A stretch of 64,000 nucleotides of DNA from Schmidtea nova (lineage: Eukaryota): NCBI GenBank assembly GCA_044892505.1, contig CM097883.1:393886001-393950000 (forward strand), written 5' to 3'. The notes under the pieces are model-generated. The model had not been told where the DNA came from, did no database searches, and saw nothing but the letters and a program-made list of their open reading frames with translations. Shown here piece by piece: positions 241 to 62,143 of this stretch. The translations under genes were made by a program, and so were the position numbers. The stretch's first letter is position 1, and each line of letters opens with the position of its first letter.

Positions 241-2380
241 CCCTTTCGTTACGGAATATTTTTAAGATTATAATGCTCCAAATACGGTGTTTTAAATGAA
301 TTTTGTATCCGTACGTTTTTCGGTATCAAAACTTTGGTGTTAGGTACTAGTACAAAGAAAAACAATTTTATTCTGGAGAAAATTTTATTTTTTATTTTCG
401 TAGAATACAAAGTTATATTAGTAACATATGAAGTACAAATTGAATTATTAGAGTATAGTTCAATTTATAATTGTTTTTTGTGTGATATATTTCAAAACAC
501 AACGGTCCATTTCAGTCTTTACAGTAATATGTAGTTTCTTTTCTTTTGTTATTTTTCGAACATACTAAGCATCTTCTTACGGTTATCTTTCCCTTATTCA
601 GTAGGTATTTTCTTTATCAAATGTCTTCCGGTAAATCTTGTTGGATTTTCGATGTGTACCGTTCTCGTGCTACTTGTTGGAGCTGAATTATATTTATCAA
701 GGATTTCTTTAATTAATTGAAGTTGAAAATTTGCTAGAGATGTTTTTATTGAGAGTTGTATAAAACGTGTGCGTTTAGCATAGTCATGTCCAGGAAATGA
801 AATAATACTTTTTATACCATTTTACACTTTTTCGAATTGATTTTACGCTGCTTAGAACCTTGGGAGACTTCTCTACGGCTTCCATATATTTATTATATTC
901 ACAAACTGCAGTTGATTTTTAAACTTTTTCGACGCTTTTTTATCTTTTTTTTCCTGTTTCACTCATTCCTACTTCATGCTGTTATTATTAGGAATTCTTC
1001 TTTCGCACCATTTTATACACAATAATGAACCAGACATAAAAAATTACTTCTCCTTTCTTCAGCTTATGTGAAGGAAAAACAGGCATATATTTTCAATTTT
1101 TTTAACTGTTCCATAAGCACTGGTTTTATGTTTATGTAAATATGTAAGTACTAAAGGACTTTTGTACCAGTTATATACAAATAACGAATGTCCTTTTTCC
1201 AAATACTTGTTCATCAATGTTATTACAATTTGACCAGATTTTCTAAGTTACGGATTATTTTTTAAGATTTCTGTTGTTGAACCAGTATATATAATAAAAT
1301 TTAAAATGTATCCAGTCTGGCAGTCACATTTCAGAAATAATTTTACACCGAATCGGTTCCTTTTTGAAGGTATATACTGCTTAAATGTAAGTCTACCTTT
1401 ATTATATGGAACAAAATTATTCTAGAATTAGTGCGTCGACAGGGAATCCAGGTAAAAAAGCCACGGAAAAAAAGCCAAAAACAATTTAGATGATGTCACA
1501 ATTATAAATTCATTTAATGAATATTTAAGTTAAGCAAAACCATAAAAAGTATATAAAAATGTTAAATAATATTTTAAATGAAAATTTAAATTAAGTAGAC
1601 AAATTTTCATAACTATTATTTTTATTACTATTGTTGACACAAATGGTTGACCAAATCTGATGTTATGACTGAATACCACAAAGTAACTGAGGGATGTCTT
1701 TTCGGCGATTGTTGAGGTCTTCCAGGAGATTATTGAGACATTTCTGCATTTCTTCGTAGCATCGTCGCTTGCGCTTGTGTTCTTGAATTCCACGTCCATC
1801 CTTTAGAACTTTGATGTGAAAGTTTTCTGAAGACTTTCGATTAATTTCGAATATAATGCCAGAATTTTATAATAATATATTTATTTATTTTATTCTATTA
1901 TTTAAAATATTAAAAATTATGAATGAATGAATTAAATTTGAGCACACTTCAAACAAATCATTTTTTTATTTACACATTTATGACTTTTCCGTAGCTTTTT
2001 CTTCCTTGGCTTTTTTTGCGCCAACCGTCGACAGGTAATCTTATTTTAAATAATTGATCATCACTTTTTTCGTTATTTTACAAAAGTGCAAAATTTTCAT
2101 TATTTTGCAGAATATTGGTGTTTCCAGCAATGGATGAATTGACCAATACTCTACCTCTTTAAGCTTTTTTACTTTAGCCATCAACTCTCTTTTTAATTCA
2201 TTTGTGTATTTTTAGAATTGCTTATTATCTTTCATAAATTGAAACTATTTGTTCGATTCCACTTTTTCCACTATTTTCCCCAATCAAATCGTTATGATTA
2301 AACAGCTCTTCAAAAACTAATAAAGGTGTAGAATTTATATTAATATTTGGATTATTGATTGATCTCAGTAAAATTATGAT
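241..2380 (-). mobile_element. Decayed piggyBac transposon (PGBD4-like transposase remnant), interrupted by a MITE
   Basis: Left end is TTAA|CCCTTT at 237-246. Manual minus-strand translation gives YWS...LHF...DQLFKIR (~2040-2150), KGRLTFKQYIPSKRNRFGVKLFLKCDCQTGYILNFIIYTG (~1280-1400) and the C-terminal Cys-rich domain RRCLVCSK...KETTYYCKD*...LCFEIYH (~480-580). Stops and frameshifts throughout. Confidence 0.85.
1443..2025. mobile_element. Non-autonomous MITE, Mutator-like, inserted in the piggyBac transposase
   Basis: 9-bp direct repeat CGTCGACAG at 1434-1442 and 2026-2034. Inverted subterminal repeats of the AAAAAAGCCACGGA type at both ends. Confidence 0.7.
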
Positions 2381-2383
2381 AAT

Positions 2384-2641
2384 TCAGAACCCAAGTGGGA
2401 TTGTATCCCAAAAGACAGTGACTATCAGATAATTCTTCTGCATTTTCATTTGCATATTTCCCTCGGAGCGTAACTTTAAAAGGTGACTGGGGTCCTTACC
2501 TCGTGAGAGCAATCGTAACTCGATGTGAAGCAAAAGTGCTTTATGATTATTCCCCATCTCATTGTATAAAATTAGTAATATGCGAGAATCAAGATGTTGA
2601 ATCTTTATAAAATTTACTGTTTTTGGACTCATTGAGAACAA
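2384..2641 (-). pseudogene. hAT transposase fragment (Buster/Charlie/ZBED8-like)
   Basis: KTVNFIK...DSRILLILYNEMGNNHKALLLHIELRLLSRGK resembles the family motif KxVNFIK..LNSRLF..LC.EMG..H..LLLHTEVRWLSRGK. Confidence 0.75.
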
Positions 2642-5636
2642 TTCTTAAGTTGGAGGGCACATTTTTTGTGGCTAAGGCTTCACGATGAATAATAGCGTGT
2701 AGATATTTACTTCGGGCTGTTGTCCTTCTTATTTTTAAATGTAATAAAAATTACAATAAATACCGATAGAATAGATAGATATATAACGTTAAAATTATTA
2801 TGTCGATTATTTTTATACTTTCTAAACTAAACTGCAATAAAATAGTTAGTGACTAAATAATTTCAAATAATTATGTAACTGAAATGAACGTCCTTAAACC
2901 TATAATTATTTTGGTGCTACTGTGTTTATTGCCTATCATTCAGATTAGCCACCCAACACGCGACTCATTGATTTTTAAACACGGCTATATTGGCTGGCAT
3001 ACACACACAAAACATGTACTATAGACTTTTACGCCAAACAAGAATGTCATCGATACAAGCGCTGCTTACTGGCAATTTTGAACGAGCTCGAGTGGGATAT
3101 GGACAATCATTTTATTTACTCGCCAACTTTTACTTGCTTGATCCCGGCGCTAACTAGACGTGAAATTTGTACTGTTACATGTACGATGTACATAAACAGT
3201 TTTCCGATGAAAAATGGATGTCACAAACCATATTCAATCGTCATAAATTTAAAATAAATGTGTGCATTAAGTATTTAACAATTTTTTTACTATAAGAAAT
3301 TTAAATTTTATAAAAATTCTATCATTTTTCGTTTTTTTAACAGATGCAACTTATGCAATTCAAAACGTTTCAAAACAGTGCAAGTAATATCAGCTATTTT
3401 TTATAATTATGTGTGTGATTCCAATTATCATAATTTGAGATTTTCAATTTCATACAGTGAATTTTTGTCCCTAATATATTATTTTTTTGCAAAACGTTAT
3501 AAAATATAATGGTAAAATAATAATTGGTAAATATTATTAATCAATAGATACTACTTACGAACGTAAGTAGTTTAAATTAAAATTAAAATTTAATATTATG
3601 AATTAGCCAATCAAAACCTTTTTGTTTTAATTACTATAAACATATTATTTACTGGTATAGTGTTTCGTAATTCATGGATGTAAATGCTTCCATGAAAAAT
3701 AGACTGTTTCGTTGCATATCCGTAAAGAAAACTATTAATATAGTCTTATCTTATCATTGTATTTACTATAATTGTATTTATTATCATTGTATTTATATTC
3801 AGTTTATTTTAATAATTTTATTTATAATTAAATACTAAAAAAATTTATCGAAATATTGATATTGTAAAATCCAATAATAAAATTTTTATTTTAAAAATCT
3901 TGTTTGCACATTTTACAATTACATAAAACAAATATCAATTTAATAAATGAAAATTTGATTTAATTGATTTATTATTATTTTTTTCATACCATAGATTATA
4001 AAAATTTATTCTTCTATTCAACACAAATTTTTGATTTATTGTCTGAAAATAAATGAAATCGTAAAAAGATAATAAATTTGAATGAATATTTTTAAATAAA
4101 AAATAAATATCTAATGAAAAATTTCAAGCTGCATTTGTTGATTAGCACTATTTTTACTTTCTTATTCAAATGAAAATACAGTTTCGTTTGACAAAGATGC
4201 GAAAGAAACTAAAATACACTACGTATATTTTGTTTATTTGTGTATATGTAAATGGGTGCATATATTTAAATGCTATTTTTCTCGCAGGATACCAATTATG
4301 ATTATAATCATTAAAATCTTAATCATTAATTTTTCGACTTCTTTTGGATTTTTTGCAGACAATAGATTAAAATTATTTTCTTCTATTCAACGCAAATTTC
4401 CAGCAGTCTTTTTCTCTTTCTAGTGTTATAATAATATCCAAAAATAATGATATTTATAACAAATATTAGAGTTTAAATCCAAAAAGAAAAACAAAAGAAT
4501 TAGATTTTTGTTCAGCAGTTATGAACAATTGAATAAACAAATGTGATAAAATTTTTAAATAGATAATAAAAGTTTATTTAATTTACAGTTGTCAGCAAAT
4601 TAAATATTAAAAATTTTCTAGTCAATGATTAGATACGTGAGCTGATTATTTTGAAAGTTCAACTTTTTTTAGCGAGATATTTAAAGATTTGCGTTTCAAT
4701 AAATTAAAAAATATTGACAAGCTCTAGTAGGTTACTTTAAATCAAGTCCATTTGGATATATAAAAAAAATTCTTCAGGTATCTTTGATAAGCATTATTAG
4801 ATAATAATGTTACATTATCTATAACTATAAACCACACATCTTTCAACATAAACTGCTTAATTGATGATGTTTATGTGTTAAATTGAACTAACGATATTTC
4901 TGGTGGTTCTTATGTGTGACGTTAGTACTTAGGACTGGAACGAATAACATCAACTGATTAATAATTAAAAATATAAAATGATTGTGTATACAATGTTTGG
5001 GGGTTGCATAAATTGAGGCAAAAATGTACTAAGAATTATGTTCAAAACAATATAAAAAACATAATTTTGTAAAAATCTTAAAATGTTCATAAATTAAAAA
5101 TTGGAAAAAAATTTTGAGGGGAAACAGATATAAGAGATGATGGGGTTGTGGATGGTTTTGTAAAATATATGTATGTGAATTCTTGCTTTCTAGGGATTTC
5201 CCGCCCACAACCTTGCATAAACTGATCGTCGATACGCGTATGCCCTTGACTATTCCCTACTAGCCAAGTTGGTACTGCATACGGTGGTGGAAAAATGATG
5301 GGCAGGAGAGCTTTGTTACCAGAACTACTCCCCATTTTTCTTCCCTCGGGTCCTTGCTGCCTATAGAAGGTCTTACGCATTTAAATCTTATTTCTATTTG
5401 TCCTAAACTCAATCTTTGATCTCTATGCCCCCAATGTCTAAAAACCACTTTCGAATAAAACTTCATCCCTTTACTTTCGGTGGAAACTTTTATTTAGACC
5501 TCCGCTCTTAAATTAATCTATTTAGTTTTTATTTATTTAGTGTAAAAAATTTGCATGAGTAGAGGCAATACCAAACTTAATTAATAACCCTTTAACTAGA
5601 AAACATTTTTATTTTTGACACATCAACTACAACATT

Positions 5637-6217
5637 TTATTTCATAAAATCCAAGTTGATTTCGTCCATCGGTTCCAATTCTGTTAGCGAGCTCAATCTA
5701 TCGATCTGCTTGTTCATCCGCTGAGCGAATTCTCGGCGGCGGCGCTTCTGTCTTGATCCTAATCGGTTCCTTCGTTGCTGTCCGACTGTGGTTGCGGGAA
5801 CCATGGGTTCTGGTTGGCTGCTGCGAAGTGTGGGAGGAACTTTCATTATAGGATTTGGAGCCGTGATAATTTAGTCCTCCGTTCCAATTTCTCCTGATAC
5901 TTGCTTTGGGTCCATCGTTGAGCCGTAATCGGACGAATTAACGCGCGCAGTTCGGTGTCTATATAGCTCTTTGTTACCGAATTTAGACAATTTCGCAACT
6001 CTCTCTGGACTGCGTCGAGCTCCGTCTTAGTCTCAGTTAAAGCTTCTTGCATTCTATTCATTTTCACCAGTTGGGTTTTCATTTGCTCTGGAGAAAACCA
6101 TCGATTTTTTAGTTCCTCATTTGCAACCGTGAGTCGCTTGATTTGCCGTTGCTGGTCTCTCATTCTCCGCTCTTGCACTTGATTTGTAAATTTCTTTAAA
6201 GTTTCGGCAGAATTCAT
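5637..6217 (-). pseudogene. Coiled-coil plus Arg-rich unknown protein, copy A (one ancestral ORF broken by a frameshift and a stop)
   Basis: ORFs 5846-6217 and 5637-5846 align to the single ORF 34404-35009. The intervening frame reads IGTED*IITAPNPIMK, versus CGTEDGIIMAPTLIT in copy B. Confidence 0.75.
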
Positions 6218-6474
6218 TTAGACTAAATAGTACAATACTTATTACAACGGTAAAGTTATCGGTGGCTTATATTTTACTTAAATAATATAATAGTTATATT
6301 GTAGGAAAATGAACACCATTAATTCTAACATAAGTATTGATTAAATTTTAATGAATTTGTCGAAAAACTTTATCGTCACCACTTCAAAAAACTTTAGAGG
6401 TTAAATTTATTGTGCTTAATTACTAACAAATGACTAAAAGAACTCGCATTTACTAAGACATTTATTGAACTAAA

Positions 6475-7026
6475 TTATTCACTGGACATTTTTCCCCGAT
6501 AGGAAAATATAGTGCGGATTTGTAGATTGACCTTGATTTCAGTGGCGATATTTGCAGCTTTCTTCAGACATTCTTTTTTGGCTTCCCGGAGGGGTCGGAT
6601 TGATACATTAAAAATGATTCCCAGCTCCTTGAATGTTGCGGCCGGAATATAACCCCAATAAATAACGAAATTCGGGAATCCATTTGCGTCCAACATCAGG
6701 ACAAACCACTCTGAGTGCCATTGCTCGAATTCCTCGCCCGGAATTATGGGCCAGTTGGCACATCCTTGGTACCATACATGATGGCGTGGGTGATCCCACA
6801 CTGTGAAGGGACATGCTGTGTCTAATTCCCTCTTCCAGGCCCACATTTTCTGGTGGACCTGCTGAATAATTTCGAAAGGAGCGGCTTTAGAGGACTGATC
6901 CGCACTCGATTTCGCTTGAGCTGCCCGTTTTTCCATCCCCACTGATTCTCGGTTTTGACTACTCTCCTTTTCCTCTTTAACGCATTTACAGTTGACATTT
7001 TCCTGGACAATCACAAAAATTATCAT
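6475..7026 (-). CDS. Trp-rich protein of unknown function, copy A
   Basis: Roughly two-thirds identical by eye to 35346-35819 over ~135 aa (HQKMWAW.REL.TACPFTVWDHPRHHVWY.GCANWP). Confidence 0.7.
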   Translation of the reverse strand: MIIFVIVQENVNCKCVKEEKESSQNRESVGMEKRAAQAKSSADQSSKAAPFEIIQQVHQKMWAWKRELDTACPFTVWDHPRHHVWYQGCANWPIIPGEEFEQWHSEWFVLMLDANGFPNFVIYWGYIPAATFKELGIIFNVSIRPLREAKKECLKKAANIATEIKVNLQIRTIFSYRGKMSSE

Positions 7027-9765
7027 TTATTATTTTAAATAATAGTTAGTTAAATTTAATATTCTCTCTCCTCGCTTGTTGTATTTTATTATGCTTATCA
7101 CCCCTTTTATGTTCTGGGTCGATTTTATGATGAGAAAAATATATTTCCCTAGTGTCAGTTCTCTGATTTTTTTTACTGTCCAAAATGTTCATTCGTCTGG
7201 GTATTACTGTTGGAAATTTTACTGTTTGTAGCTACTCCACGGTGATGTTATTCTTATGGATAAAAAATAAAAAAAAATTGTGTTTGACTTAAGATCCCTG
7301 CTACTTTCTAATCGCGTATCTCATGTCTATGTTGGTCTATATTATTTCAATAAAAATCAGTGCCCTTTCACACTCAATACTACCCATAGTGGAAATGATC
7401 CCCTGTTTTTCGGTGTCCCATGTGCAACCCTGCCGAAATTAATTACATCCTAGTCATTATCGATTTTTCTACCGGGTGTGGAGCCTCTAAGCACTATGAC
7501 GCGGACTGACACCCTGGGAACATGTAGCTCCCATTTGGCGCGCTACATATCTATAATTTATATATGACCAAAATAAGAAAATAAAATTATTAATATGTAA
7601 CATATAATTAGTATAACAAAATCATGAACATCAGCATTTTACAAATAATAAGTACCTAATTCCGTGAAATGCTTGTCAAGGTAATACTATATCTAAAATT
7701 ACAGTTTGGTTTGTAATTGATCGGCTGATTGATTGTGTTGCAAAATTGGTTCAGTTAGATCGGGTCAAATTCGAGTCTAACTTAAGTCAAAATTGCTCAC
7801 TGTTTTAAATGAATTTCAATCGGTATTTATATCGATTTGGCTGGGTCCGACTAACCAATCAGGTTTGATTGCTTCCATGGTAGGTCTAATTATTATTTTG
7901 TTTACCTAATTAATTTTCTATTTTTCTGATTCAATTCTTTCCAGGTGGTCCAGTTTTCCAATCAATTTTTCAATTACAAGTACTTTTATTTTATTTAAAT
8001 TATTAATATTTTACATTTTATTTGTTTTAGGTACCTCTTATGACGGCTAATTTTAAGATCTATCTAAAACTTATAATATAATTTATTTATAATTTAATAG
8101 TAATTTATTTATATTTTATTTTATTATCCTTTTTTTTAAATTTAACATTCACCTTTCTTAGCTTACATTTTTTCTTTTTGTTTTGCTATTCATTTATTTT
8201 CCTTTTTTCTCTGTTTAGCTGGCCCAACAGATAGAACCGTTTAAAATGAATGAAAAAACCAGTAGGGTTCGAATTGGATTTCATAAAAATCGTTATTAAA
8301 AGAAGTTAAAGTTTCGTAAATTTCGATTGCCCATAAAGTTACTAGTTAATAATAAACATATAAAAGTCCAGTTTAAAGCATTTATGTATTGAAATGTTGT
8401 GAATACTATTTGAAAATAAATTATTGGGTGTTTTTTTCTTGGTTTTAAGAGCACAAGGAGATTTTTATTTGTCGATAAGTTATCAGTAACCCAGCATAAT
8501 TAGATGCTCAATCACCTAGCCAAGTATTTGAGCTTTAAAAGCTAATGAATTTAATTATTTATCTATTTACATTCGTATAAATTATGTAAGTTAATGAATA
8601 AATGTCTAAAATTAAATAATTAACGTAATTTATGGAAATTAGAAATTTTGTCCAAATTAGATAAATTATGCATCATTCGATAGAGAAAGGTTGATTTTAA
8701 GATAACATAGAAATACAAAAATAATTTTTTAGCTATTAAAATTAATATACATATTTTCGAATTATATTATTTTATAATATTTTTCCAGTCAAGCGTTGAT
8801 CTTATAATTAATGAGAAACATATTTTAAAAGTAAAATATTATTATTTACAAAAAAACAATTCTTTGATTTTTCTCTTCTCTTTATAATTTTAGATGAGGT
8901 ATATATACTAGTTTTAAGTGCGATAATTTTTACTATAAATATTTATATTTCAATAATACTACTATTGCTGATTTGTGATATAATACAAATCAATTTAATA
9001 TTGAATTGTACTTTGACAGTAACATTGATAATCAATTACAATAATAGTTATAATATTGTTTAGATTGAACTTTGATTTTAACATTGATATATACAGGCCC
9101 GCAGAGATTTTCAATGGGCCCGGACCAAAAATATTTCTCGGGGCTCACGTATTATTTTTTTAAAATATTTAATTTTCTGTAATTTGGTCTTGATATTTGA
9201 ATTATAACAAACACAATTATTTTTTATTTACTGATATACATGTTAATTATTTTATAGATGCTTTTATTTATGACATGAAATATTTAAACTTAACTTTAAA
9301 ATCAGGGCCCGTGCCATATGATCCTTCTANNNNNNNNNNNNNNNNNNNNNNNNNNNNNNNNNNNNNNNNNNNNNNNNNNNNNNNNNNNNNNNNNNNNNNN
9401 NNNNNNNNNNNNNNNNNNNNNNNNNNNNNNNNNNNNNNNNNNNNNNNNNNNNNNNNNNNNNNNNNNNNNNNNNNNNNNNNNNATCACATTACTGCTAGGA
9501 GAAAGAAAAGCCATAAGAAACTGTTCAGATTCAAACAAGATGTTAGAAAACTTTAAAACACACTTTCTCCAAATTACCTTCTTAACAAACACGCAACATC
9601 AATAATAAATTAATAAAATCAGAAACATCAACAAAATAGTTTTACCTGTTTACATCCGTTCAATTTTTATCACTTCTTCACAACTTCGAAAGCTCTCAAT
9701 ATCAACTATCTTTAAAAATAATGTCTTTGCTGTTCTAAATTAAATTCTTTTGCTTATCCAAAAAT

Positions 9766-14589: not shown

Positions 14590-17500
14590 TAGGGCTTCTA
14601 ATCCCGGACATAAATTCCGATCTCGGGATTTCGGGATTGTATTTTATAAATCCCGGGATTGACTTCTGCTGAAAAAAATAATATAAAGTAAAAACTAATA
14701 AAAACTAACAATTTTTTTAATTCAGTATAAAATTAATCTTTTTCTTAAATTATTAATAACATATACTATACTAGTAATTATTAAATTCATATATTAAGTA
14801 ATTCATATTAAAATTCTTGATTAAGTCTTTTTTGTTGTTATAAGGGGAATCTGAGGAAACAGAGCTCGTCTAGATCCTTATCATCCAAGGAACTTCGTTA
14901 TTTATTACAAAATAAACCTGCAGAAGAAAAGGCTCTTTCTGACTCGATGCTGATTGGTTTTATCGTTTTTAAATATTTATATGCATGTTTCAAATAATCG
15001 CCATGTGAGCCTCCATTTTCAAATAGAGCCATCTCTTTTTGAAGTTTGGAGACTAACAATTCACATCGATGTGGTATCACTTGTGAACGTGACATGTCAT
15101 CATTTATTGCTTTATTAATTTCTTCGGCTGTAGTTAACGGTTGTACAGAAATAACTTCAGCAATTTCCTCCTGCACAGAAACATCCTGTTATGGAAGTTG
15201 CATTCAATCTTTCAAGAAGATCTACAAATTATTTACGGCACTTAGTTGGTGATGGTACTATAATGAACTTATTATCTGAGTGACAGATTCCATTCAAGCC
15301 ATTATGTAGGTAATTCAAAAGTCCGCTTAAATCCGTACGACGTTGCTTCAATCGAATAGTTAAAGCTGTAAACAGCTTTTGACTAATAATATTATCCGCG
15401 TCCTCCAGTTTCTTCAACGTAAAGTTAATAGCGATATCGGCCGTAATAAGGTTCGCGTCCTGGCGACAAAGAGCTTCAACAGTAGCCTTGATAGGTGTTA
15501 AAGCACCAACAATTTCAGAAATCACTTGGATGTCATTTTGAGAAATCTCTATAGATATATTTTGTTTTACATCTATAAGAGCTTTCTGGACACAGTTTCT
15601 TAAGAAGTAAAAACGTTCTAACATAGCCAATACACTACTCCATCCACTCTTGCAATCCTTTATTAACTGAATTTCTTTCCCGAAATCTTCTCGAACATAT
15701 TTTTGCAAATCATCATTTTGGTGGGTGAGCGTTTAAACAAAGATACTGTTCTCCGCTTTTTTCTTTATTAGTGGCCCTAATGAAGCATCATTTACTTCAC
15801 ATAGCGGCAAACAGTTACGATCTACCAATTCTGCTCCGTCATATTCCAACTCCTCACATATTTCAGGTTCAGTCTCGCTTTCTGAAAGGTTATCCACTAG
15901 AGTATTTTCTTCTGATTCGGCTCTTTCATCTGACTTTTTGTAAAACACGTAAATAACTGAAAACTGTATACCGTGTGCCAAAAATAATTGTTGATGTACT
16001 GATAATAACTTTCCAACTTTTGTCATAACACTGGCTCCATCTGTCATAGTGTCATACAACTACAATTGTATAGTCATAAATTGAAATTTAATCTAATTAC
16101 AAAATTATAACCACACAATCACAAATACACAATCACAATTATACAACTATAAAAGACTTTAGGGGAAAATAACCAACACGAATTGTGAACATTACACAAC
16201 TTACCCCTTTAAAACCGGAGGTTAACACGAAAATAAAATTAAAGAATTTACATTTTAGCAACATTTACAACCTATTAAATAATTGTTAACTAATATTTAC
16301 AATTAACACAAAATTTACATTTTACATTAGCAGTTAACCTAAAAAAATTTTATTCGGTTTTGTTTTATGTTTTACAACGATTTAACCAAAAAAAATAAAA
16401 ACTGTACAACCTACATTGTTTGTGCATGTGTTTTGCTTGTGTGTGTTCGTGTTTTTATTTGAGGCAGTCACTGTATCGTTTGTTTTGTATAGGTATAGTT
16501 TTTGTATTTTTGTTAGGAAGTTGTTGGGGTTTTTGTTAATTTGATTTTGTTTTGTTTGGTTGTTATATTGATAGGGTTTTAGCCTGCGAATGTTGATTCC
16601 GATTTTCTTGTTGTTTATTAGTAGGGTGCCTACATTTTTATTCAGATTGATTAATTTGTAAGGACCTTCATATTTTTTACTCAAAACCGCTGGTGAACGG
16701 TTTTTTTATTAACACTGACTCGATGATGAGATTTGATTCTGAATGTTTGGGTTTGTCATCTCTATTTACGAAAGCTTCTTTTGATTTGTTTTCCTTTGTT
16801 TATGCTGTGTATTCGAATATTTTGTCGGCGTTTTCGACATTTTATATCATGTTTGGGAGGTTTGTTGAATGGTCGCTGATGATTGTTTGTGGGTATCCGT
16901 ATCTTGAGAACCAATTCAGTTCTATGTTTTCGTAGACAGTTCTAGCGGTGATTTTTTTGATTGGTATTGTTTCAAACCAGTTTGTTTTCCGATCAATTAT
17001 ATAGGAGCATAAACTTTTTGTCGATTTGATTCCCGACAGTGTCAAAGTTAGTTTTGAGAATTCTAACCATTTTTGGGGTGTGCCGTTTCGTCTGTAAAGT
17101 AATTTGGGATGTTTGCATTGGTGTTTATTATTGAATATATGGTGTGATGGTTGTCAGGGGTGTAATAATAGTTGGTGTTCTCTTGTTGAGCGTATGTGGT
17201 TTCGTTGTTGTGTGCTTGGGAATTGTTTGTTGGGTTTTGTTGGTTCGATGCCATTTGTCTTTATGTACAGTGCTATTTTATTTGTTTGCTGTAAAAAGAA
17301 AATGAGAGTCGTTAAAAGATATGGTCTACTGTGTTCGACCAACAGAGACGGTAGTCTTTATACCTCTACAGTAGGTATGCCAAAAGATTTCCCATTTGAA
17401 AAACACAAAAAAAATTTCGTCGAATATGTAATGCTGTTTTTATTTCTGACACCAGTTATTATGTACTACCTAGTTGTGGTGATTATTACTTATATTGTAG

Positions 17501-19534
17501 TATGTTGTTGTTGTTGTGTTGAATGTGTCTGTTATGGAAGTAGTTGTAAACCCAACAGAGTCTTCGGTAATATGTGTCGGGACAGTTGAGGTCAATACAA
17601 TATACGGTAGTGAGATTGTATGCGTGTTTTTTAGTTTGCACAGTAACAATTATAAAAAATATAATTCAACGATAACTTGATTAAAACGTTTATTTACCAA
17701 GATAGAATATAATAAAACAATTTACTCGCAAAAAATGGGTTTTGATTATTTTAATTGGTTATAATTTCTTTCTATAGCTTGTTCTGACTGTTTTCGATAA
17801 TATTATATTTTTTTGATTCCTATTTCGTTCCTAATTATATTTAGATTTTTCTTCTGCTTTTAATTGCCAGGGAATTAACTTTTTAATTTATGCTTGGATC
17901 GGTTTTGAATTCGTTTATTGTTTCAATAGTTTTATTACTTTACTTTTTTTGATTTGTGATTTGGCTTACTATAGCAATTTGCTATAGCAAGCCAAATTCA
18001 AATTTATGGATTGAAATTTAATATAATATAATAAAATTTAATATAAATAATACAATCACAACTGCTATCCTCCACCATTATACGACCACAACCCGCGACC
18101 ATATAACTACAATTGTATAGTCATAAATTGAAATTTAATATTATTACAAAATTATAACCACACAATCACAAATCACAATCATACAACTATAAAAGACTAC
18201 AAGGGAAAATAACCAACATGAATTGTGAACATTACAATAGATAATATCCTTATGCAAATTTAGTCCATGTTCATTTAACTTTTCTATTAAGAATTCAATA
18301 CACTTTTCTGCTGGCATTGTACAACTAATACAAACAAGACCCAAGCTCCAGAATTTTGATTCTTCAGCATTTACGTTTATATTCATGTACCGCCGATTCC
18401 GTAACGATGTCCACTCATCGAATGACAGAGAAAATCGTTCTCCTGATTTTCGTTGGATAGAAATTTCAGCTTTAATCGAATTTCTTATTTCATTAGCATA
18501 ATCTAAAACTATTTTACAAATCGTGCTTGGTGACGAAAGCAGTTTTCCAAATCCCATGGCAGTTAAGGCTACACGTAGATCCAAATAATGGCATAAAACA
18601 TTAAATGAAAGTCCATCTAGTGCAGTTAAACGTGACAGAGTTGCAGGAAGAGATTTTTGTTTATGCTCCAAAGCAGGAAAAAATTAGTTAATTTTGTGAC
18701 TCTTTTCTTCAGAGGTTCACCTGCTGTACTTGCGACATCTGAGTCGTTCTTATTCTTTAGTTGAATTTTGTGTATCGAAAATAAGTGAGTGTATAGACCT
18801 CTTGTCGTTCCACCACCAATTTTTAAAACCTTTTTGCAATATCTCACCTTACACATTGAAGTCTCACTTTTCTCATCGCTTAGGAATTGTTTCCATACTG
18901 CGGAATTACTTCCTGTGAAATATTCTTTGTAGACAGCCATTTATAAAGCCCTAAATATAAAATAATATTAATATAAAATACCGCATCCAACTAACATAAT
19001 TTTTTTCAATATACTTACTTACAGCGTATTGCAATGCAATTTAGAAATACGATTAATTTAGAAATTGTAAACATTATTTTAATTTAAAATACTGAAAAGG
19101 CACTGTAAATATAAAATATTATTTCAAAAAATTTTAATCATATCGCATTTCCTTTTCAATATAATATTTACGAAGTACTATATAATTGCACAAAGAATAC
19201 TTTAAAAAACTATTTTATTTTAAATACAATTTTCACTTTATAAATTCGATTAACTTTAACTTTTTGTTCACAAATTCGAAAACATACTAAAAATAATAAT
19301 ATTTTTAAAATAATTATTGAAATTTAAAATTTCTTCAGTTTAGCAACAAAAATAGACATGGATTACTTGTCGATAATAATTCTGATTTAACGTTAAAATT
19401 TTTATATATACAATATTTTGAAAGATTAGAATTTTCATACTATTTGATGTATATAAATCCAAGGATTTCTGAACCATAATCCCGGGATTGCAAAAAAACC
19501 TCAATATCCCGGGATCCCGGTATTGGAAGCCATA
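14590..19534 (-). mobile_element. hAT DNA transposon (BED-finger transposase), split by a nested LTR element
   Basis: Perfect 8-bp TSD CTTTGTAC (14582-14589, 19535-19542). TIRs TAGGGCTTCTAATCCCGG / TATGGCTTCCAATACCGG. Fragments carry the BED finger (VWKQF...CKV...C...HL), SFDEWTS, TDGASVM and ESERAFS. Confidence 0.92.
16050..18236 (-). mobile_element. Small, internally deleted Ty3/Gypsy LTR retrotransposon
   Basis: Direct repeats of ~140-147 bp (16050-16196 and ~18095-18236), TG...CA ends, 4-bp TSD ATAG. Integrase remnants IIDRKTNWFETIP...WFSRYGYPQTIISD (16842-17045) and the GPY motif KKYEGPY (16382-16684). Confidence 0.8.
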
Positions 19535-20609: not shown

Positions 20610-21266
20610 GGTTTTAGGACAAAATGGTACGGACAAAATGGTAGTTGGATAAAATAATATAATGGATGAAGTAGTATAGCTTTGAGTATATTTAAATATA
20701 ACAAGTTTTATTTTTCATTTATAAGAACTGTAATGGGTTATTAATCTAATATGTAAATATATTAATACATAATTGTATTCTAATACATAGTTATATAATA
20801 CATAATATATTACTGATAAGAAAAAGTTAGCAAGTAAGTAGGTTAGGTTGCCTTTATTTAACATAAATGTCTGATGCATTCACTTAATAGTAATAAAAAT
20901 CAATACAAAAATCTGGACTAGTAAAATAAAAATATATGAATGACAATGAATTAGTTAGTTTTATAAAAATTAATGTCAGAAATCTAAGACTAATGACTTA
21001 TTCAGTTATAAATTTTTGTACATTCTTTTGAACCGTTGCAAAAAGTCACTGTCAGACAACATTTATATTGAGCCCTCGTGCAATATCTTTTAGTTTAGAT
21101 CGAAGTTTATATAAAAAATTCTAGCATGTGTTAAAATTAAATAATAATAAATATTATAGTAAATATTATTAATTAATAAACTTCAAAGTTAATAATTAAT
21201 AAAAGTTTTTTTTAATAGTCCAGGGAAGTAGTACCATTTTGTTCTATACCATTTTTTCCGGCCACT
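20610..21266. mobile_element. MITE with GGACAAAATGGTA subterminal inverted repeats
   Basis: 8-bp direct repeat GAGATAAT at 20602-20609 and 21267-21274. Inverted GACAAAATGGTA / TACCATTTTGT units at the two ends. Confidence 0.6.
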
Positions 21267-21984
21267 GAGATAATTATACAGTACTTATTATGACAATATG
21301 TAAAGAATAAATTTTGTGGTACTTGAAATAATTTTGTTTTTCTATTTTGGCTTTTCGCATTCTTCCACAGCTCCTGCCTTATCTCTGACAGCTATGAAGA
21401 TATGCCTTGCTTTTCCTTTTTTGTTATTCCGACTTATTTTTTTGCAATTCTGATATCCCTGAAAAGTTGGCAAGATATAATTTTCTTCTTGTTTTTGGAT
21501 TTCTAAATTCTTTTTGCTTTCTTGTACTTCTTAATTAGGAATGACCTTTTTTGGCCATTTGTTCGATTTCCTTTGTTTCGCTGACATCTTATTTCTCAAG
21601 TTTTGTTCTTCAAATCTCCTTTGTATTTCAAAACATCGCATCATTTAACCTGTCCATTTTCCTCAATTATTTCATTTATTTGTAATAATGTTTAGTTTAT
21701 TATTTAGGTATCCTCAACATATCTCGCCCCTCCCATTAAAAAAATTCGTCCTTTGAATTAAATATTTAAATTATACTCAGTCAATTTCTTAAATTCGTTT
21801 TCATACCAGCTATCCCGTAAAATTTTAATAATTAGTAATTTAATAATGTTAACAATAATAATGATAATTTAATATTAATAAAATAGCAACAATAATAACC
21901 ATAATATATTTTGTTTATAATAATAACAAAAAGGATATCGCTCTAATAATGGTCATAACAATAATATCAATAGTGTTTTTATAG

Positions 21985-22805
21985 TGTATTTATTCAATTA
22001 GTCGGTACTATTTTCTGACTCTTCGGTGTTCTTAGGATTTATTCATGAAAATAACCCAACACAGAAAAATTTATTCGAAATTAGAATTAACACAAATCTT
22101 AGATACAATTTCTGAAAACAGAGTCTCTGAAATAAAAATTCGCAATAACTTTTGAACTGCTTTTCCGATTAAGCGTTGGTAAATCTCTCAATGGAAGATT
22201 TCCCCTTCTGGTATGCTGTGAAGAATAAATTCAACTTATAACTCGTTTAACTTTTTCATTTTCTAACTCGTTTAACTGTATCTGCTCATTGATAATTCTT
22301 TGCTCACCTTTTTTTTGACTTCGACCACTCTGGAAAATTCTGGTATTTTCGTTTCGTTTATATACTGTTCGTTTTAATGAGTTTTTCCTACCAAGCTGTC
22401 TGGCGGTATTTCCCAATTGACGTTTATTAATTAATCTAATTAAAAATAAAACATCAATTTTCTCGGGGATAGTTATCTCGTCCGGGCTTCCCACACTACA
22501 CGGGTTCTCCATTGCCTCGGCTTTCTTATTATCCAATTAATTAATTTATTTATTTGTTTAATTCTTTTCTTCTGGGACACACTATTAATTTTATTTTACC
22601 ATTTTTGAATTCGTCTCACAATTAGGAATACACCCATACCAATTTCCCCCGCAAAACCTTTGTTTTTAAATTATCTAAATTTTTAATTAATTTTCATGAT
22701 TTAATTATTACTTTTAAAATTTTATTTTTTTTTGATTTTGACTAAGTTTTTATATCTTTTTTGTATTTGACTAATTTTATTAAACCTTAGCATACTTCCT
22801 CCTTT
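21985..22805 (-). mobile_element. Diverged LTR of the same family as 33880-49637, with adjacent polypurine tract
   Basis: Shares AGTCGGTA..TTTCTGACTC and CCATACCAATTTCCCCCGC blocks with the 37k/49k LTRs. It is followed at 22793+ by CTTCCTCCTTT...AGATTCG.CCTCAAATC, like the sequence at 38070+. A further LTR-end/PPT junction sits at ~21712-21760. Confidence 0.65.
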
Positions 22806-24247: not shown

Positions 24248-24378
24248 ATTCTGATTTTCAAAAAAACGTTAATAAGACTGAATTAATTAAATTTATTTTA
24301 ATTTCATTACATGATGTAATGAAATTAAAATAAATTTAATTAATTCAGTCTTATTAACGTTTTTTTGAAAATCAGAAT
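24248..24378. repeat. Perfect palindrome with 65-bp arms and a 1-nt spacer
   Basis: 24248-24312 is the exact reverse complement of 24314-24378. Confidence 0.9.
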
Positions 24379-51540: not shown

Positions 51541-53614
51541 TCGATAGATGGATATTAAATAAATTGTTTAATATTTAATAATTTATTTAATATGTTTTCT
51601 TAATAATTATCAAATCTGGTAATTGATTTCAATAATTTAATTTTAAAAAATTTGATTAAAAACTCATTTTTAAAACTTTTTTAGGAAAATAATAATTACG
51701 ATTTTTTATGGCTCGTGGATTTGTAATTATTTTTTTTTCTTACTCTTTGTCTACGACATAATAAATGGCCATTTTCAGTAAAACAGCAATGAATTAGGTA
51801 CAGGTAGGTGTGTATTTTTCTATAATATAAGCTATATAATTATTATAGGTCGCCATATCCAGTGAAACACGGTGTATGTCGTAGACAAAGAGTAAGAAAA
51901 AAAAAAATTACACACAAACACAAAACATAGAAAAAAACAAATGGTAAATATCATGGGTGTGTTTTGTTTTATTCAATATGGCTACCATATATAATTTTTA
52001 TCAGCAGAAAAATTGAAAATTAAAATGTATAATAAAATTTCAATAATTGGATCTGATGAATCTACATTGAGTTTCCACGAAAATGATGAAATATCATCGT
52101 AAGTGTTATAATTTGAGTATTGAAAATTTTATATTTTCCCAGTTTTTAAGACAATTCACTGGAAACAATACCATTTCGTGAAAAAGATGAAATATCATCG
52201 TAAGTAATGTAAATTGTCATAAAATTTTTATACTTTCCCAGAATTTCAGAAAATTCACTGGAAACAATGACATTTCGCGAAGATGAAATAGGAAAATGGT
52301 ATCACTTTTTTATTTATTGAAATATTTATTATGGTCTTAGCCTTTCAGATATTCCAGGTACACCGTACAACTGCATTTCATTCGATATCCGAAAAAATGT
52401 TCGCAAATCGTAAGATGAAATAATAAATATTTAAAAAGTTATTTGATTTTAATAGGATTTCAGATATCGACAAAGCCAGAATCATAAACGCAAAGGAAAA
52501 TAAACAAGATTACTTCCATTTGAATTACTTCCATAAAGATGAATATAAAGATTTGGAAAACTTTTTCTTACATGTTCGCCGATTTTTTTCTAAATGTTTT
52601 CGAAAAATTGAAATATTTGGAGATTAATGTATTTATCAAATAAATATTAGTTAGAATTGAATTTTTACTTACCTTTGATGTTAATAATTCCATAATATCA
52701 TAAACATTTTCTACTAATTATTTAAAAATTAAATAAAAATAAAATTGATGAATAAAGATAACCTTTTAAAGCTTTTATAGTGATCTCATATCATTATGAG
52801 AAGAAAATAAAAGACTTAAAAGTTATCCTAATTACAAAAATTACCTGAAAGCCATTTTAAAATGGCTAATTCCAACAAATTTTGAATTAATGACTAATAA
52901 TAACCCGTGATGTATCTCACTCACCTGCATTATAAGTCGCCATATCCAGTGAAACACGGTGTATAGATACATTAATTGTTGCATGCCTGCCCTTTGCTGT
53001 GTAATTAAATTTTATATTAGAAGTTGTATTCAGCGTTATACGATGTACTTTGAGAAGCTTGGTAGCTCTAATTTCACAAATAAAATTAAATCATGATTTA
53101 CTTTTATTTGAAATTTATTAAACACAAATATAAACGCAATTAGGAAACCATGTAAAAGGACTCCCGAAACGCATTCTTAACGGAACATAAAAGACACACT
53201 GTACCGGATATAAAACGGAAGTTACAAGTTATTTTGGCTTGTTTTAGATGCATTTTACTAAAATCGGTTAAATTACGACAAACCAATTTTATTAAAATTA
53301 AGTTGTCTGCAATCTAACTTTTAAATAATAATTACATCTATGTAAAAATTAACCAAATTAAAAATAAAATAGGGATCAAGCGTGAAAAGCTGGAATTTTA
53401 TTTATTACAATATAAGATAATTCATTTAAAGTACAAAATTTTAAAATTGATTAAATAATTCAGACAAAATATTTAAATAACTAGGTCAATTTTCGACATT
53501 AATTGGCACGCAGACTAAATTAATTTTTTAATTAAAAATAATTCATTTTATCATACATTTTAATTTATGTCTGATCAACAATTCGAAATAAATTTAATTG
53601 AGCAAAACTTTTAT

Positions 53615-54783
53615 TTAAAATTTATCAAATTTAGTAAATGTTCCTTCAGCATGGACCGGTTCCATGTTAGCAACATTAGTTTTCGCTTTTGAAATGAAGC
53701 GTTTACTTTCAATCACTTCAATCTGGCTCAATATAAAATGCTCAGAGACATAAGTTCCTTTAAATTCTCTTTTCCATTTGTCTATTAAAAATTTCAACTA
53801 ATAACGATGTGAAATCATCTGATCACCTTTTAATGCACCCAAAGGTCCATTTTCTCCATTATATTCAAAAGGCAATAACCGCATCAACCCTGGAATTTTA
53901 GAAGCTAATTTCTCGATATCGTTTTTTAGCCGAATTGTCTACAATAATATATAATATTATTAGTTAAAATAAAATTGGTTTAACTCTTTTTTTCATCTTA
54001 GGTTTCATAAGCAGTTCCGAAATCGAACAATGTATGTCAAAAATAATAGGTTCTCTGAAGAATATCAAATTTTTAAGTCTCATAGGATAAGTTTCCTAGG
54101 AAAATTTTTACTTTTCACAATTAAGTTATGATATGTTACCTCCCATATTTTTTTCCAATTTTTAAATAACTCACATTGATTCCATACTTGGTTTACCTTT
54201 GTATTGGCTCGATCCAAATCCATAATTACCGATATTCCATGAGTTTGAGTAATGGTTTTTGCAGCAATTAAATCAATACCCATAAACAGAACTCTCATTA
54301 GATCAATTAATTTAATACTATTTGGATCCCACAATCCAAACTGTATCAATATAACTAATTGACCGTCATCACTGCATCCCAAAGGAACTAACAAACTATT
54401 GAAATTATAAAAATATTCACTTTGAATTTTTAAATACTTTAGATCCAAAACTTTATCTATCATCTCATTGCTTAGAGATGACCAATCAAAAAATTTGCTG
54501 CATTCAACATGAGAACGACGCAATGTGCAAAAATTATCAAGCCTCTTTTGAGCAACCGAATGATCATATTTAGCGCTTCGCAGAAATCTTAACAAAAATT
54601 CTTTATCTAGAGAATATGCTCAGATTTACATCAATTTTAATAATATATCAAACTTTGAGGAACTTTTAAATGCAATGTACTACTACACCATTTACCAAAG
54701 CTTTCGACGTGAGCATCGATATTTTCAAACTGCTCATTGAGTTCAATTTGCCAGTTACTTTCACTTTTAGATATTATTGACAT
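53615..54783 (-). CDS. Host CRAL-TRIO domain lipid-binding protein (alpha-TTP/clavesin/RLBP1-like), multi-exon
   Basis: FLLRFLRSAKYD, G..VILIQFGLWDP, HGISVIMDL, YPMRLK.L.F..EP, LLPFEYNG. Short GT-AG introns of ~42-50 nt (e.g. 54607-54653) give an apparently open frame. Confidence 0.85.
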
Positions 54784-56949
54784 TATAAAATTTAATTACT
54801 TTTTCTTTAGAAGTTGATCATATTTTATATGTAAATAAAACAACACACAAAATTCGCATCTATTATTAAATATTCGACAAGCTGATTTCTGCACAAAAGA
54901 CGATTAGTAACAATTTACAAGCTCTTTAGCATGACTGTGATATGTATATATGATTATCATATCACAACCGCCAAAGGCTCTATTATGTTGCTTTAAAAAC
55001 ACAATTGAATATTTCGTACGATCACTCTACTTTCAAACCACCAATGCTGACTGTGATTAAATTTAACTTTTATTCACAATCACTTTGGAGGTTTTTAAAT
55101 TAGATAATTACCAGCATTGAAGGTGACTACCTTATTTAGGACATCAAATTTGGCTGTGATACCAGCCGAATAATATGTTACCAGTCTCTATCGACAGTCA
55201 AATAATGATGTCCATAACAGGCATAATGTCACTAACTTTTGAACAGATGATTTATTCAATGATTTTCGAAAAACACATTAGAAGGACATTTTTTAAATTA
55301 ACAATATCTGTCCCACTACCTGTGTCTTTCAAAGAGTACTGAATCACCAAAAACACAACAAATGCTAATCTACAAGATAAAATTGCATATATATACAAAC
55401 AAATTCAAACTCTTACTCAGCGAAATTTCGTTAAAGAATTATTTCTTTGTTAGTCATTTAAAAATGAAGACTGACTAATACAATGATAAAGTAGACAATT
55501 CACTAACTATGAATCATAATTTTCCTACCTTCCCCATTTTATTTCAATTGCATGCGCATGCACGCACAAATGTATTTCTCAAATGTATCCAATGTACATT
55601 TGAAAATGTGACACACAAGCACACAGAAAGAAAATTGAAAAACGTCTGCACGTCTAGATTTCGGTGTTTTTCATTAGCTTAAAAAAAAAGCTTTATGCAG
55701 TAGTCAGACAGATTTTGTATTGAAGGTGATGATGCTGTGTATTATATTTTATATTTGGCTATCCGTATTTTATGTTTAACATGTGACTGATTATGTAGGT
55801 CAGTTGACAAAGGCGAAGGAATTTGAATTTTTAAATTCGTTAGTTCTGTTCGATAATATCAAATTTTGAAACTTAAATGATCTCAATTATTTATGCAACA
55901 TAAATTATTATTATGTATTTAAAATAATTACATTTATCTTCTTTGTTTATCGGAATTAATAAATGTTATGATTTCAATTAAGTTAATAAAAAATAAAATA
56001 ATTTTTATTGAAATTAATCACCTCCAGTCTAGCCCGGAAATATCTTAGAATTTTGTTTACTGACTATTAATTAATGAATATTATTATTAGATTTGTGTTT
56101 TTTAATTTTTTAATGAATTCCAATTATGTAATTCACATCAATTTCCATTTACTGAGTATTTTTTTCATTTAAATAACTTTGATTAATAATAATTATGTTG
56201 AAAGTGCACATTTTTGTTGATAAAGTCAATCAGAATTTCAATAATTTTTGCTTTTCATCTATAAATAGATTTCTAAATTTCTATTTACTGTCAAATTGTG
56301 AGTAAAATAAAGAAAAGAAACAGTTTTAATAGTTTGAAATTGTGATTAAGAGGGAAGTTTTCATTGAAAAGTTTCATTTCAATCATTTGATAAGACATAA
56401 TTATTATAATTAAAATATATTTGTATTTATACTTCTATCATTATTCTATAAATAACATTGGCGGATTGGTTCCAATTATGGATAATGCGATTTCATGTCG
56501 TTTTGGTCAAACGTATTTGTAAAAGTGAATAATGACATATAAGGAACAATAATAAAACAATTATTCGGCAACCTATTATTTATCACATTTACCGTGCTTT
56601 CATGCATGCTTTCATGCTAGTTACTAGAACATCGTTTGTTTTATTCCGAGGCCTGCCTAAACTAGGAATCACAAGCAATTTGCAAGTTTGAGTCTATATT
56701 TGTAAACTTTATGTAAAAATCGACCGAGCTTTGAAAATTGAAACTAGATAAATTTCAACCCAGAATAGTACTATTTCCTCAGCTATTTCGTTTAAAGTAA
56801 AAATTTTGTATGTTTTACAGGTTATAACTTTTTCGCCATTCAAATTTTGTTTTAATTTAATGGACAATTATTGTTTTATTTGATAATTTTTATTTTTATA
56901 AAAATAAAACATTGTCTAATGATATGTATGTTAAATTAAAGTAAATAAA

Positions 56950-60754: not shown

Positions 60755-61775
60755 ATCGAGACTTATACCGCAATTCAAGTTATTATCTAAATATCCTAAA
60801 TTTCGGACAAGACTTTGCATGTATGTGGCACTAAAATTATCATTTTCAAAATCTTGAGTATATGTTTCTCGATAATCGGTATTTTTCGACAATGATAATG
60901 TAGTTACATTGAAATGTTTGAATGTAGATGAAGTTTCAGCATAAGACCCATTATATTGATTTTCAGTTTGAAAAGCTATAAGAATGAAATTTGGCATTCT
61001 TCTATCACCAAATATTTGCTCCTTGTAAAATGATGATGCCCCTTTACCGATAGCAAACGATACAATTTCTTTGGATTTTATTGGATAAATTGCATGTTTG
61101 TTATTTAAACCAATTTGATGACCAGCTAATACTGAAGATTCACATCGAACTCTTCGAACCATTAATTTAGCGTCTACTAATTGGAGTATTGGTTTCCCAG
61201 TTTCCGATTTCAATGATAATGCAGAATCAGATCTCTTCAATCTAATATAATATATTAACTCCGGGTAGTAAGTATTTAGGTTGATTCATAAAATCAAGTT
61301 GTAATGGTGAACACATGTTGAAAAGTTTCGATCCCTTGATCCACCTTTTTCTATCATCAGTTGGATCATATCCCATTGGAGTAAGACAAGTTTCTTTCGC
61401 ATCACTAGTATAATTTAAAATAGTTTCGATTATTGCCTTGTGTGCGTATGTATTGTTTCCATCCTCAATTTTTATATTATTAAATCCAAGAATTGCATCT
61501 TTGAAAAGTGTATGAAACAGGTAATTATCAGGTACTACATCACTCGCATCAACTAAGTGTTTTTTATCTTTATCTACAACCTTGACCGTAACGGATAATA
61601 AAGTATCGTTCAAATCCAAATATTCGGTTTGTGAACCGTTAATGTAAAATTCAACATCATTTCTACTATCTGTAATAGAATTCATTGGAAACACATCTTC
61701 AAACACCCCATATTCAATAACTGCTTGAGGGCTTGGTCGATCAAAAAGACATAATTCAGATTTACCGCAAATCAT
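60755..61775 (-). pseudogene. Polinton major capsid protein (hexon, double jelly-roll); frameshifted near 61242 and truncated by the hAT
   Basis: CGKSELCLF...Q..IE.G, EYLDLNDTLL, YAHKAIIETILNY, DFMNQPKYL.PGV, AKLMVRRV, AIYPI, YNGS...FKHF. Confidence 0.8.
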
Positions 61776-62143
61776 TCTTTAAATATAGTTCCAAGACCCT
61801 TCATTCGTTTGTTTATACGCTTTCTACCTCGCTTACGTCTTGGTCCTACTGGTTCAGGTTCCGGTTCATTTGTAATTGAAGGAAGCATTTGTGTTACAGC
61901 AGGTATAGCTTTATTAACTGCGGCCAAAGCATTTGTTTTCAATGATGGTAATATTTTATTATCTTTCATGATAACGTCCTTGGCAGTTTTCATTCCGAAA
62001 TTACCTATTCGCCTAAGTATTGGAAATGCAAATCTCCCAGTAGTTTTCAACTAACCTGATCCATATTGTTTACCTACAAAATACGGTAATTCACCACCAG
62101 TTTGGCTATTACTGTACAAAGAAACTATATCGGGATTACTCAT
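61772..62143 (-). pseudogene. Small basic Polinton core-like protein (PW-like)
   Basis: MSNPDIVSLY...QTGG...QYGSG*...RRKRGRKR..KGLG: Gly-Gly/GxG protease-site-like motifs and an Arg-rich tail. One internal stop. Confidence 0.6.

Follow-up and report, generated by a model that had tools for sequence, protein, structure and literature searches.

Two selected genes and a conserved non-coding block within probable solo long terminal repeats of a Burro-like Gypsy family in Schmidtea nova

The giant Gypsy-like retrotransposons of planarians known as Burro (GYPSM1) are described in the text of a review as having an internal region of up to 25 kb and a total length above 30 kb, so a size of ~2.5 kb or more is implied for each long terminal repeat (LTR) (PMC6431247). 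The same text reports accessory open reading frames (ORFs) and polyprotein domains, and it presents no genes within the LTR (PMC6431247). Here, two related units carrying two genes each (ORF1 and ORF2) between TG...CA ends of the LTR type, designated copies A and B, are described from a 64,000-nucleotide stretch of the Schmidtea nova genome (assembly GCA_044892505.1, contig CM097883.1, positions 393,886,001 to 393,950,000, forward strand), hereafter called the window. An earlier, sequence-only reading of the window had offered two options for these units: very large solo LTRs holding protein-coding genes, with the multi-kb LTRs of Burro as a precedent, or minimal passengers borrowing a Gypsy integrase. 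The first option turned out to be the better supported, and its precedent stands insofar as the published sizes imply such LTRs without stating them.

Coding capacity inside or beside the LTR is known from retroviruses: mouse mammary tumour virus sag and lentiviral nef lie in U3 or overlap it, and foamy viruses possess accessory genes together with a promoter of internal position. Ordinarily, solo LTRs are non-coding. Copies A and B share such coding capacity and differ from these viruses in harboring two whole genes, each followed by AATAAA, between repeat ends of the Gypsy type. Since genes in retroviral LTRs are known, the arrangement is unusual, as had been supposed, yet not unprecedented.

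The likeness of the locus to Burro lies in a planarian-like host, in the implied LTR length, which is close to that of A and B, and in a neighboring element, C, where a mononegavirus-like envelope (env) domain follows gag in frame and accessory ORFs are present. At the same time, C, 15.8 kb long, with LTRs of 0.85 kb and no reverse transcriptase (RT) or integrase seen, differs from the gag-env-pol polyprotein element of more than 30 kb outlined in the review text (PMC6431247). Orphan genes conserved in most copies of a family are likewise documented for the additional ORFs of the plant and fungal LTR retrotransposons Grande, RIRE2, Retand and Boty; unlike ORF1 and ORF2, these are internal to the element according to the text on them, and the usual site is the stretch from pol to the 3' LTR (PMC7264820). 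No description of genes within planarian or Burro LTRs was found in the literature text, a weak negative with figures and supplements outside its scope, and no LTR anatomy is given in the text portions of PMC8532177, PMC11410931, PMC13465017 and PMC13238120. The closest described protein–RNA pairs are Rec of the human endogenous retrovirus HERV-K and human T-cell leukaemia virus type 1 (HTLV-1) Rex, for which the available text reports an arginine-rich motif, an export signal and multimerisation together with an RNA element in the LTR; this element is kept by HERV-K solo LTRs (PMC12724133, PMC9523361).

The observations on A and B establish integrase-type ends with a target-site duplication (TSD), two genes under selection, conservation of a non-coding block (CB1) at the nucleotide level, and the presence of many copies in the genome. 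Both A and B are real insertions, and the extents and LTR-like termini ascribed to them earlier proved exact (Table 1). Their left ends read TGATGGGGTTGTG and TGTTGGGGTTTGTG, respectively; the right end is CCCAACA in both, and this end motif is the same as in the 840-860-bp LTRs nearby (those of C and of the solo LTR D). The inverted repeat at the ends amounts to 7 bp in B and 6/7 in A, and the first 13 bases of A equal the U3 end of the 5' LTR of C. The two copies align in five collinear blocks with 68-84% identity, both ends included.

B sits 17 bp within the 3' LTR of C and is flanked on both sides by TTAT (4/4 bases; chance ~0.01 from local base composition), which bears out the clean 4-bp TSD reported for it. 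The 3' LTR of C, after removal of B and one TTAT copy, equals the 5' LTR of C at 61/61 bases; hence, the ends of B are fixed independently of the end motif. B therefore arrived after C, via a 4-bp-staggered insertion of the integrase type.

The lack of terminal direct repeats, of a primer-binding site (PBS) and of gag/pol, also remarked upon earlier, holds within the scope covered: no exact direct repeat longer than 13 bp occurs inside A or B, no PBS adjoins either end of the copies, and neither gag/pol nor an integrase-like transposase was matched by Pfam among the four ORF products of A and B scanned. No PBS, polypurine tract (PPT) or internal domain is attached to B; at A, a purine tract abuts the left end. 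Terminal-repeat retrotransposons in miniature (TRIM) and large retrotransposon derivatives (LARD), defined by two LTRs, a PBS and a PPT, were considered and rejected on these grounds (longest internal direct repeat 13 bp, no PBS).

ORF1 and ORF2 are real genes under selection. The non-synonymous and synonymous divergences (dN and dS) between A and B are 0.21 and 2.09 for ORF1 and, for two parts of ORF2, 0.19/3.5 and 0.37/3.1. Both genes thus display strong purifying selection (dN/dS ~0.05-0.12, the ratios being rough because dS is saturated). The reading frames are open in B, and both are frameshifted in A. A conserved CCAAT-TATA pair is located ~400 bp from the right end in both copies; B possesses extra TATAAA words before ORF2 and ~30 bp before CB1, which are missing from A.

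Searches for relatives of the two products brought up no homologue. Homologues were found among none of 13 candidates of near length for ORF1, and among none of 217 near-length and 7997 longer candidates for ORF2; a profile search with ORF1 returned no match among 1.84 billion representatives, and 49 viral and 599 metagenome stretches contained no ORF1 locus. In the protein atlas, ORF1 had no usable match and the rows returned with ORF2 all stood under 0.9, and Pfam and PHROGs scans of the products of A and B gave no significant match. Sequence search against the PDB yielded nothing for ORF1 and four weak matches only (E 0.019-1.3), to helical proteins, for ORF2. A fold search with ORF1 gave no match at E 0.001, its model being too poor (predicted local distance difference test, pLDDT, 39) for this outcome to carry meaning. 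The structure model of ORF2 from B (pLDDT 73, predicted template modeling score 0.31) is built of two long helices and, after a disordered linker, an arginine-rich and a final helix. The basic motif of ORF2, predicted to be helical, is kept in both copies; of 10 residues, 7 are basic in B and 6 in A. Two further candidates from the window were discarded: an ORF1 relative at 21200-21718 (E 0.05) failed when retested, and a short peptide found at both 17.4 kb and 32.3 kb proved to be a coincidence on the reverse strand.

CB1, situated near the left end, is identical in A and B at 151/163 nt, far above the synonymous sites of the genes, and is therefore under constraint at the nucleic-acid level. 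Its interpretation as a coding exon was rejected, given that synonymous sites are conserved in CB1 and saturated in the ORFs. On the minus strand, the same long stem-loop forms in 3/3 copies, i.e., in A, B and a third, diverged cassette, F (fold z-scores -1.5, -2.5 and -2.6), whereas the plus-strand folds differ among the three (0.25, 0.30 and -2.3); the loop is of the GNRA type in two of them (A and B). Pairing holds in 89% of cells over three sequences (2/500 shuffles as high). An RNA structure on the minus strand is therefore likely. It is disfavored by the fold of the whole block in A (z only -1.4) and by a non-significant covariation, both sides being changed in 3/28 pairs, which was reached by 90/500 shuffles; pairing and covariation alike were gauged on three sequences with a structure derived from those same sequences. 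For a second block, CB2, a good fold was obtained in B alone. The CB1 pattern had no match in metagenomes, and nine matches of 17-mer CB1 words in viral contigs were dismissed as chance, since they had been selected by that word and extend little. Known ribozymes and a tRNA-derived origin likewise find no support (no Rfam match in A or B, no tRNA by ARAGORN).

Many copies of the A/B family are present in the genome. The estimates come from read-derived contigs of four public runs of one study, of unrecorded kind, which hold 45-48% of the words of B and may be the window's own source, hence not independent; they are rough. Contigs with the exact flank have a depth of 8-10. Those with 2-4 substitutions relative to B reach 100-161 in 4/4 runs (10-20x the exact flank), and those ~86% like B reach 418-504 in 3/4 runs (~50x). 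The summed depth, which is not a copy number, is highest on CB1 (32,555-47,418, the deepest bin of B in 4/4 runs) versus ~2,200-7,300 in the core ORF bins, which suggests that CB1 is common to more subfamilies than the genes. There are also two weak hints from joints in the contigs, one in which CB1 meets a C-type LTR at its U5 end (3/4 runs, depth 16-22) and one linking the U3 of C to the right end of B (2/4 runs).

Table 1. Positions, in the window, of copies A and B, their parts, and related or adjacent elements
Feature	Position	Strand	Remarks
Copy A, TG...CA unit	5138-8229	.	3092 bp; older copy, both genes broken; flanks GAGA (5134-5137) / GATA (8230-8233)
Copy B, TG...CA unit	33897-37242	.	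3346 bp; 7-bp terminal inverted repeat; TSD TTAT at 33893-33896 and 37243-37246
ORF1 of A	6475-6960	-	frameshift split near 6880; 103/150 aligned codons with the same amino acid (aa) as B
ORF1 of B	35346-35819	-	157 aa; basic N-terminus, Trp/Cys/His-rich core
ORF2 of A	5637-6217	-	frameshift split near 5875-5890; 72% and 47% aa identity to B
ORF2 of B	34404-35009	-	201 aa; long helices at the N-terminus, then a disordered linker, a helix rich in arginine and a tail rich in leucine
TATAAA of A, CCAAT box 29 bp upstream	7826-7859	-	pointing to the genes; customary meaning of the motifs
TATAAA and CCAAT box of B	36844-36877	-	spacing as in A
AATAAA after ORF1 stop	A 6461-6466; aligned B 35308-35313	-	
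AATAAA after ORF2	5636 (A); 34376 (B)	-	
CB1 of A	5222-5384	-	non-coding; long imperfect stem-loop, GUAA loop
CB1 of B	33980-34142	-	same stem-loop, GCGA loop; z -2.45, 5/200 shuffles equal or better
CB2 of A	7457-7541	-	second conserved non-coding block, upstream of ORF1; 76% identical to 36385-36469; fold z -0.8
CB2 of B	36385-36469	-	two hairpins; z -3.1, 0/200 shuffles as good
Purine tract abutting left end of A	5116-5137	+	19/22 purines, as in 0.23% of all 22-mers of the window; possible PPT or chance
Cassette F	29648-30857	-	CB1 homologue 29719-29830; ORF2-like 29796-30017; frameshifted ORF1-like 30385-30857
Element C, host of B, deleted Burro-like Gypsy	33880-49637	-	15.8 kb; TSD CATT; LTRs 48781-49637 and 33880-33896 + 37247-38069; PBS, PPT; gag-env-protease-like region
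Element D, ordinary solo LTR	31147-31986	-	840 bp; same terminal motif; flanks GATT/GACT; internal comparison for the appearance of a solo LTR

The most probable reading (roughly 70%) is that A and B represent solo LTRs, derived from a Burro-like Gypsy family with long LTRs and with two accessory genes inside the repeat. According to the text of a review, copying of Gypsy elements needs a PBS, a PPT and two LTRs, and the integrase inserts the reverse-transcribed linear DNA (PMC7264820); hence, A and B could have had these only within a larger element. LTR ends with one TSD and with no PBS, PPT or LTR pair are what LTR-LTR recombination leaves behind, and D looks alike. The reading is supported by the match of the A and B ends to bona fide LTR ends nearby and by the 4-bp TSD of B, like that of C, with its exact empty site; moreover, purifying selection combined with saturated synonymous sites points to long replication with working genes. 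The high depth of B-like contigs and the LTR length implied for Burro also count in its favor. In the proposed course of events, the repeat of a Burro-like Gypsy element would have reached 3.1-3.3 kb through the uptake of an accessory cassette made up of the promoter, ORF1, ORF2 and the conserved RNA hairpin of CB1. Recombination between LTRs would then have left A and B as single repeats, and a full-length Burro-like parent with a PBS, gag-pol and a PPT would exist or have existed.

The link of A and B to Burro is plausible, since the host looks planarian, C has the gag-env order of the Burro type and the same cassette is found in the accessory region of a related element. In C, Retrotrans_gag (aa 24-103) and the mononegavirus-like env domain PF24664 (aa 187-256) share one open frame, other env pieces are seen, and its ORFs show no RT or integrase; on this basis, C is regarded as a deleted Burro-like element. 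The Burro trait of having a mononegavirus-like env placed, in frame, between gag and protease was found in this neighbor only.

Several findings speak against the solo-LTR reading. No copy of A or B joined to a PBS, a PPT or gag-pol was seen. A profile of four short LTRs showed no homology to A or B, and end-anchored alignments of A and B with the short LTRs gave z <=1.8 (1/8 tests). The flanks of A match at 3/4 bases (chance ~0.09), which alone is of little weight. TATAAA is about as frequent in A and B as expected by chance. Loose contig ends at the termini of B were absent among the 24 listed, with 2760 further ones beyond these, an uninformative outcome. Finally, with its right end missing, F is possibly an internal module rather than an LTR.

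Cassette F deserves closer consideration in this respect. Its CB1 profile match has an E of 1.1e-6; the score of the ORF2-like piece was equaled in 1-2/1000 shuffles and those of the two ORF1-like frames in 15-19 and 28-56/1000, and the pieces follow the order and strand of A and B. F is placed within E, an older element that is Burro-like, in its accessory region; here, E is ~3 kb longer than C, net of D. Homology to C ends at 29648, where TGCTGG starts; the right end of F and its TSD were not found. F is thus either an old insertion of the A/B kind or an internal module.

If the latter, the cassette could belong to the interior of Burro-like elements, A and B being deletion or recombination remnants that retained just the outer tips of two LTRs along with this module, or A being the 3' LTR of a truncated plus-strand element. 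The position of F between the accessory genes of E, the apparent joint of CB1, across an intervening sequence, with the U5 end of C-type LTRs in 3/4 runs and, in A, the purine tract at the left end together with the imperfect TSD are in line with this possibility. Still, it is an unlikely one: A and B stay collinear through both ends even though synonymous sites are saturated, so one and the same deletion would have had to spread, which again requires an LTR pair. The perfect TSD and empty site of B also tell against it, as do the TG-like left end of F exactly where C homology stops, which is what an insertion predicts, and the left flank of A, in which nothing matches the 3' internal regions of C or E.

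The second option of the sequence-only reading, an independent non-autonomous passenger, would be a 3-kb unit moved as DNA by an integrase of the Gypsy or Ginger type and never part of an LTR pair. It would suit the solitary position of A and B, each with a TSD or near-TSD, the lack of homology to the short LTRs beyond the ends, and the multi-copy state of the family. It is nonetheless improbable, inasmuch as long-lasting selection on an RNA hairpin and on two genes that are not transposases better fits a retroelement. To our knowledge, there is no route to fresh linear ends without a PBS, a PPT and LTRs, which likewise weighs against the passenger. The Ginger DNA transposons (Ginger1, Ginger2/Tdd) do resemble A and B in their TG...CA ends with the same TGTNR pattern, 4-bp TSD and similar size (2.6-7 kb), as far as the text of their description goes (PMC2836005). 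According to the same text, their inverted repeats measure 40-270 bp (Ginger1) or 50-180 bp (Ginger2) versus 7 bp here (PMC2836005). A and B also lack long terminal inverted repeats, no integrase-like transposase was found among the four ORF products scanned, and the target is neither CCGG/CCGT nor RTATAY (the B site is A-TTAT-G). The suggestion that ORF1 and ORF2 are host genes with chance TG/CA ends draws on the lack of matches to transposon or viral protein families, and is contradicted, to the point of being very improbable, by the interruption of an LTR whose twin is uninterrupted (61/61), by ends conserved between divergent copies, and by a multi-copy state relative to the flank.

Returning to the solo-LTR reading, the orientation of the repeat can be judged with some preference only. 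The LTR somewhat more probably runs in the direction of the genes, which would place them in U3 and CB1 near R-U5; the genes lie inside the unit in either orientation. The minus strand is favored by the genes, the promoter, the strand of the hairpin and a right end rich in A. Read on this strand, the right ends begin with 200 bases of which 53-54% are A, comparable to the 43-51% at the U3 starts of C, D and E; the left ends have 23-24% A. The opposite direction is favored by left ends with four G (vs. three), which resemble U3 ends, and by the purine tract at the left end of A.

As to function, ORF2 may tentatively be viewed as an adaptor of the Rev/Rex/Rec kind, considering its coiled coil, arginine-rich helix and leucine-rich tail: the arginine-rich helix would bind CB1, and the leucine-rich tail would recruit export of unspliced RNA. 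The pair ORF2/CB1 resembles Rec and its response element (RcRE) or Rex and its response element (RxRE) in combining a small protein that has an arginine-rich motif, a leucine-rich segment and putatively multimerising helices with a probably structured RNA element in the LTR that persists in solo LTRs. It differs in that the Rec and Rex genes, as far as the texts cited for them go, lie outside the LTR and are expressed by splicing, and in that ORF2 has no sequence similarity to them, its binding and export being a prediction. Three points count against this proposal: ORF2 has no sequence match to Rev-family structures, the leucine-rich pattern resembling the usual consensus of export signals follows the basic motif directly in A only (further downstream in B), and the ORF2-like piece of F lacks the arginine motif. 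An activator of the Tat type, acting on an equivalent of the trans-activation response element (TAR), is the second choice and unlikely. ORF1, judged by composition alone, could perhaps be a nuclear, possibly metal-binding accessory regulator or an antagonist of host defence. Taken together, it is conceivable, albeit doubtful, that a planarian Gypsy lineage independently evolved a module in the style of complex retroviruses inside its LTR, with a Rev/Rec-like (or Tat-like) protein, an RNA response hairpin and a second orphan gene. A literature search for Rev-like export in Gypsy elements turned up, in the text covered, retrovirus work only.

The surroundings of A and B, in a window of AT-rich eukaryotic DNA, are a nest of elements. 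C is recent, its two LTRs being identical at 818/839 aligned bases (97.5%); besides gag, it harbors an env of the mononegavirus-like type that is broken, a piece resembling protease, an ORF for a membrane protein and accessory ORFs with an acidic motif that looks exonuclease-like by eye only (no Pfam match), as well as a mariner-like transposase gene at 41047-41643. The older element E, related to C, is assigned to 21985-51220, with its 3' LTR at ~21985-22790; its 5' LTR was not found within the window. Nested in E are hAT-like insertions at ~23.6-27.2 kb, F, D and C. About 1.9 kb of E (31987-33879), with no match elsewhere in the window, contains several TATA- and CCAAT-like words and decayed frames, and possibly represents additional accessory genes or the right part that F lacks. 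Some 270 bp from the LTR of E, at 21700-21735 on the minus strand, a second PPT is followed by a TG end, TGTTGAGG; this is what is left of a different element, for which no second end was found.

Elsewhere in the window, a near-perfect palindrome of 131 bp (99%) lies at 24248-24378. At 16053-18236, a 144-bp direct repeat (90% identical) surrounds a CA-rich degenerate minus-strand frame that has the look of an integrase core (16845-17153) by eye, with no confirmation by Pfam. A mir-753-like hairpin and a mir-71/mir-2-like cluster, with scores below the Rfam gathering thresholds, occupy 52762-55337 (52.8-55.3 kb) beside a CRAL-TRIO gene fragment (54080-54463); mir-753 is indicative of a planarian. 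ORFs at 60752-63586 resemble, by eye, the capsid and integrase-tail genes of Polinton/Maverick; the Pfam scan gave no family match.

The value of these observations would fall to an annotation detail if B were an already known long Burro LTR with its ORFs drawn. Otherwise, the product of recombination would be a pair of intact genes together with a conserved RNA element, present in many copies, through which a dead element could still supply proteins in trans. Were the retrovirus-style module real, solo LTRs with open genes, e.g., B, would be scattered self-contained expression units, trans-acting on hairpin-bearing elements; and if ORF2 and CB1 act like Rev/Rec and its response element, this would constitute regulated export of unspliced RNA outside Retroviridae. 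The finding bears on the question, raised in the review text, of whether Burro-like elements are true proviruses (PMC6431247), and on the biology of planarians, where Burro1 has been reported to aid the survival of stem cells (as cited in the text of PMC13465017).

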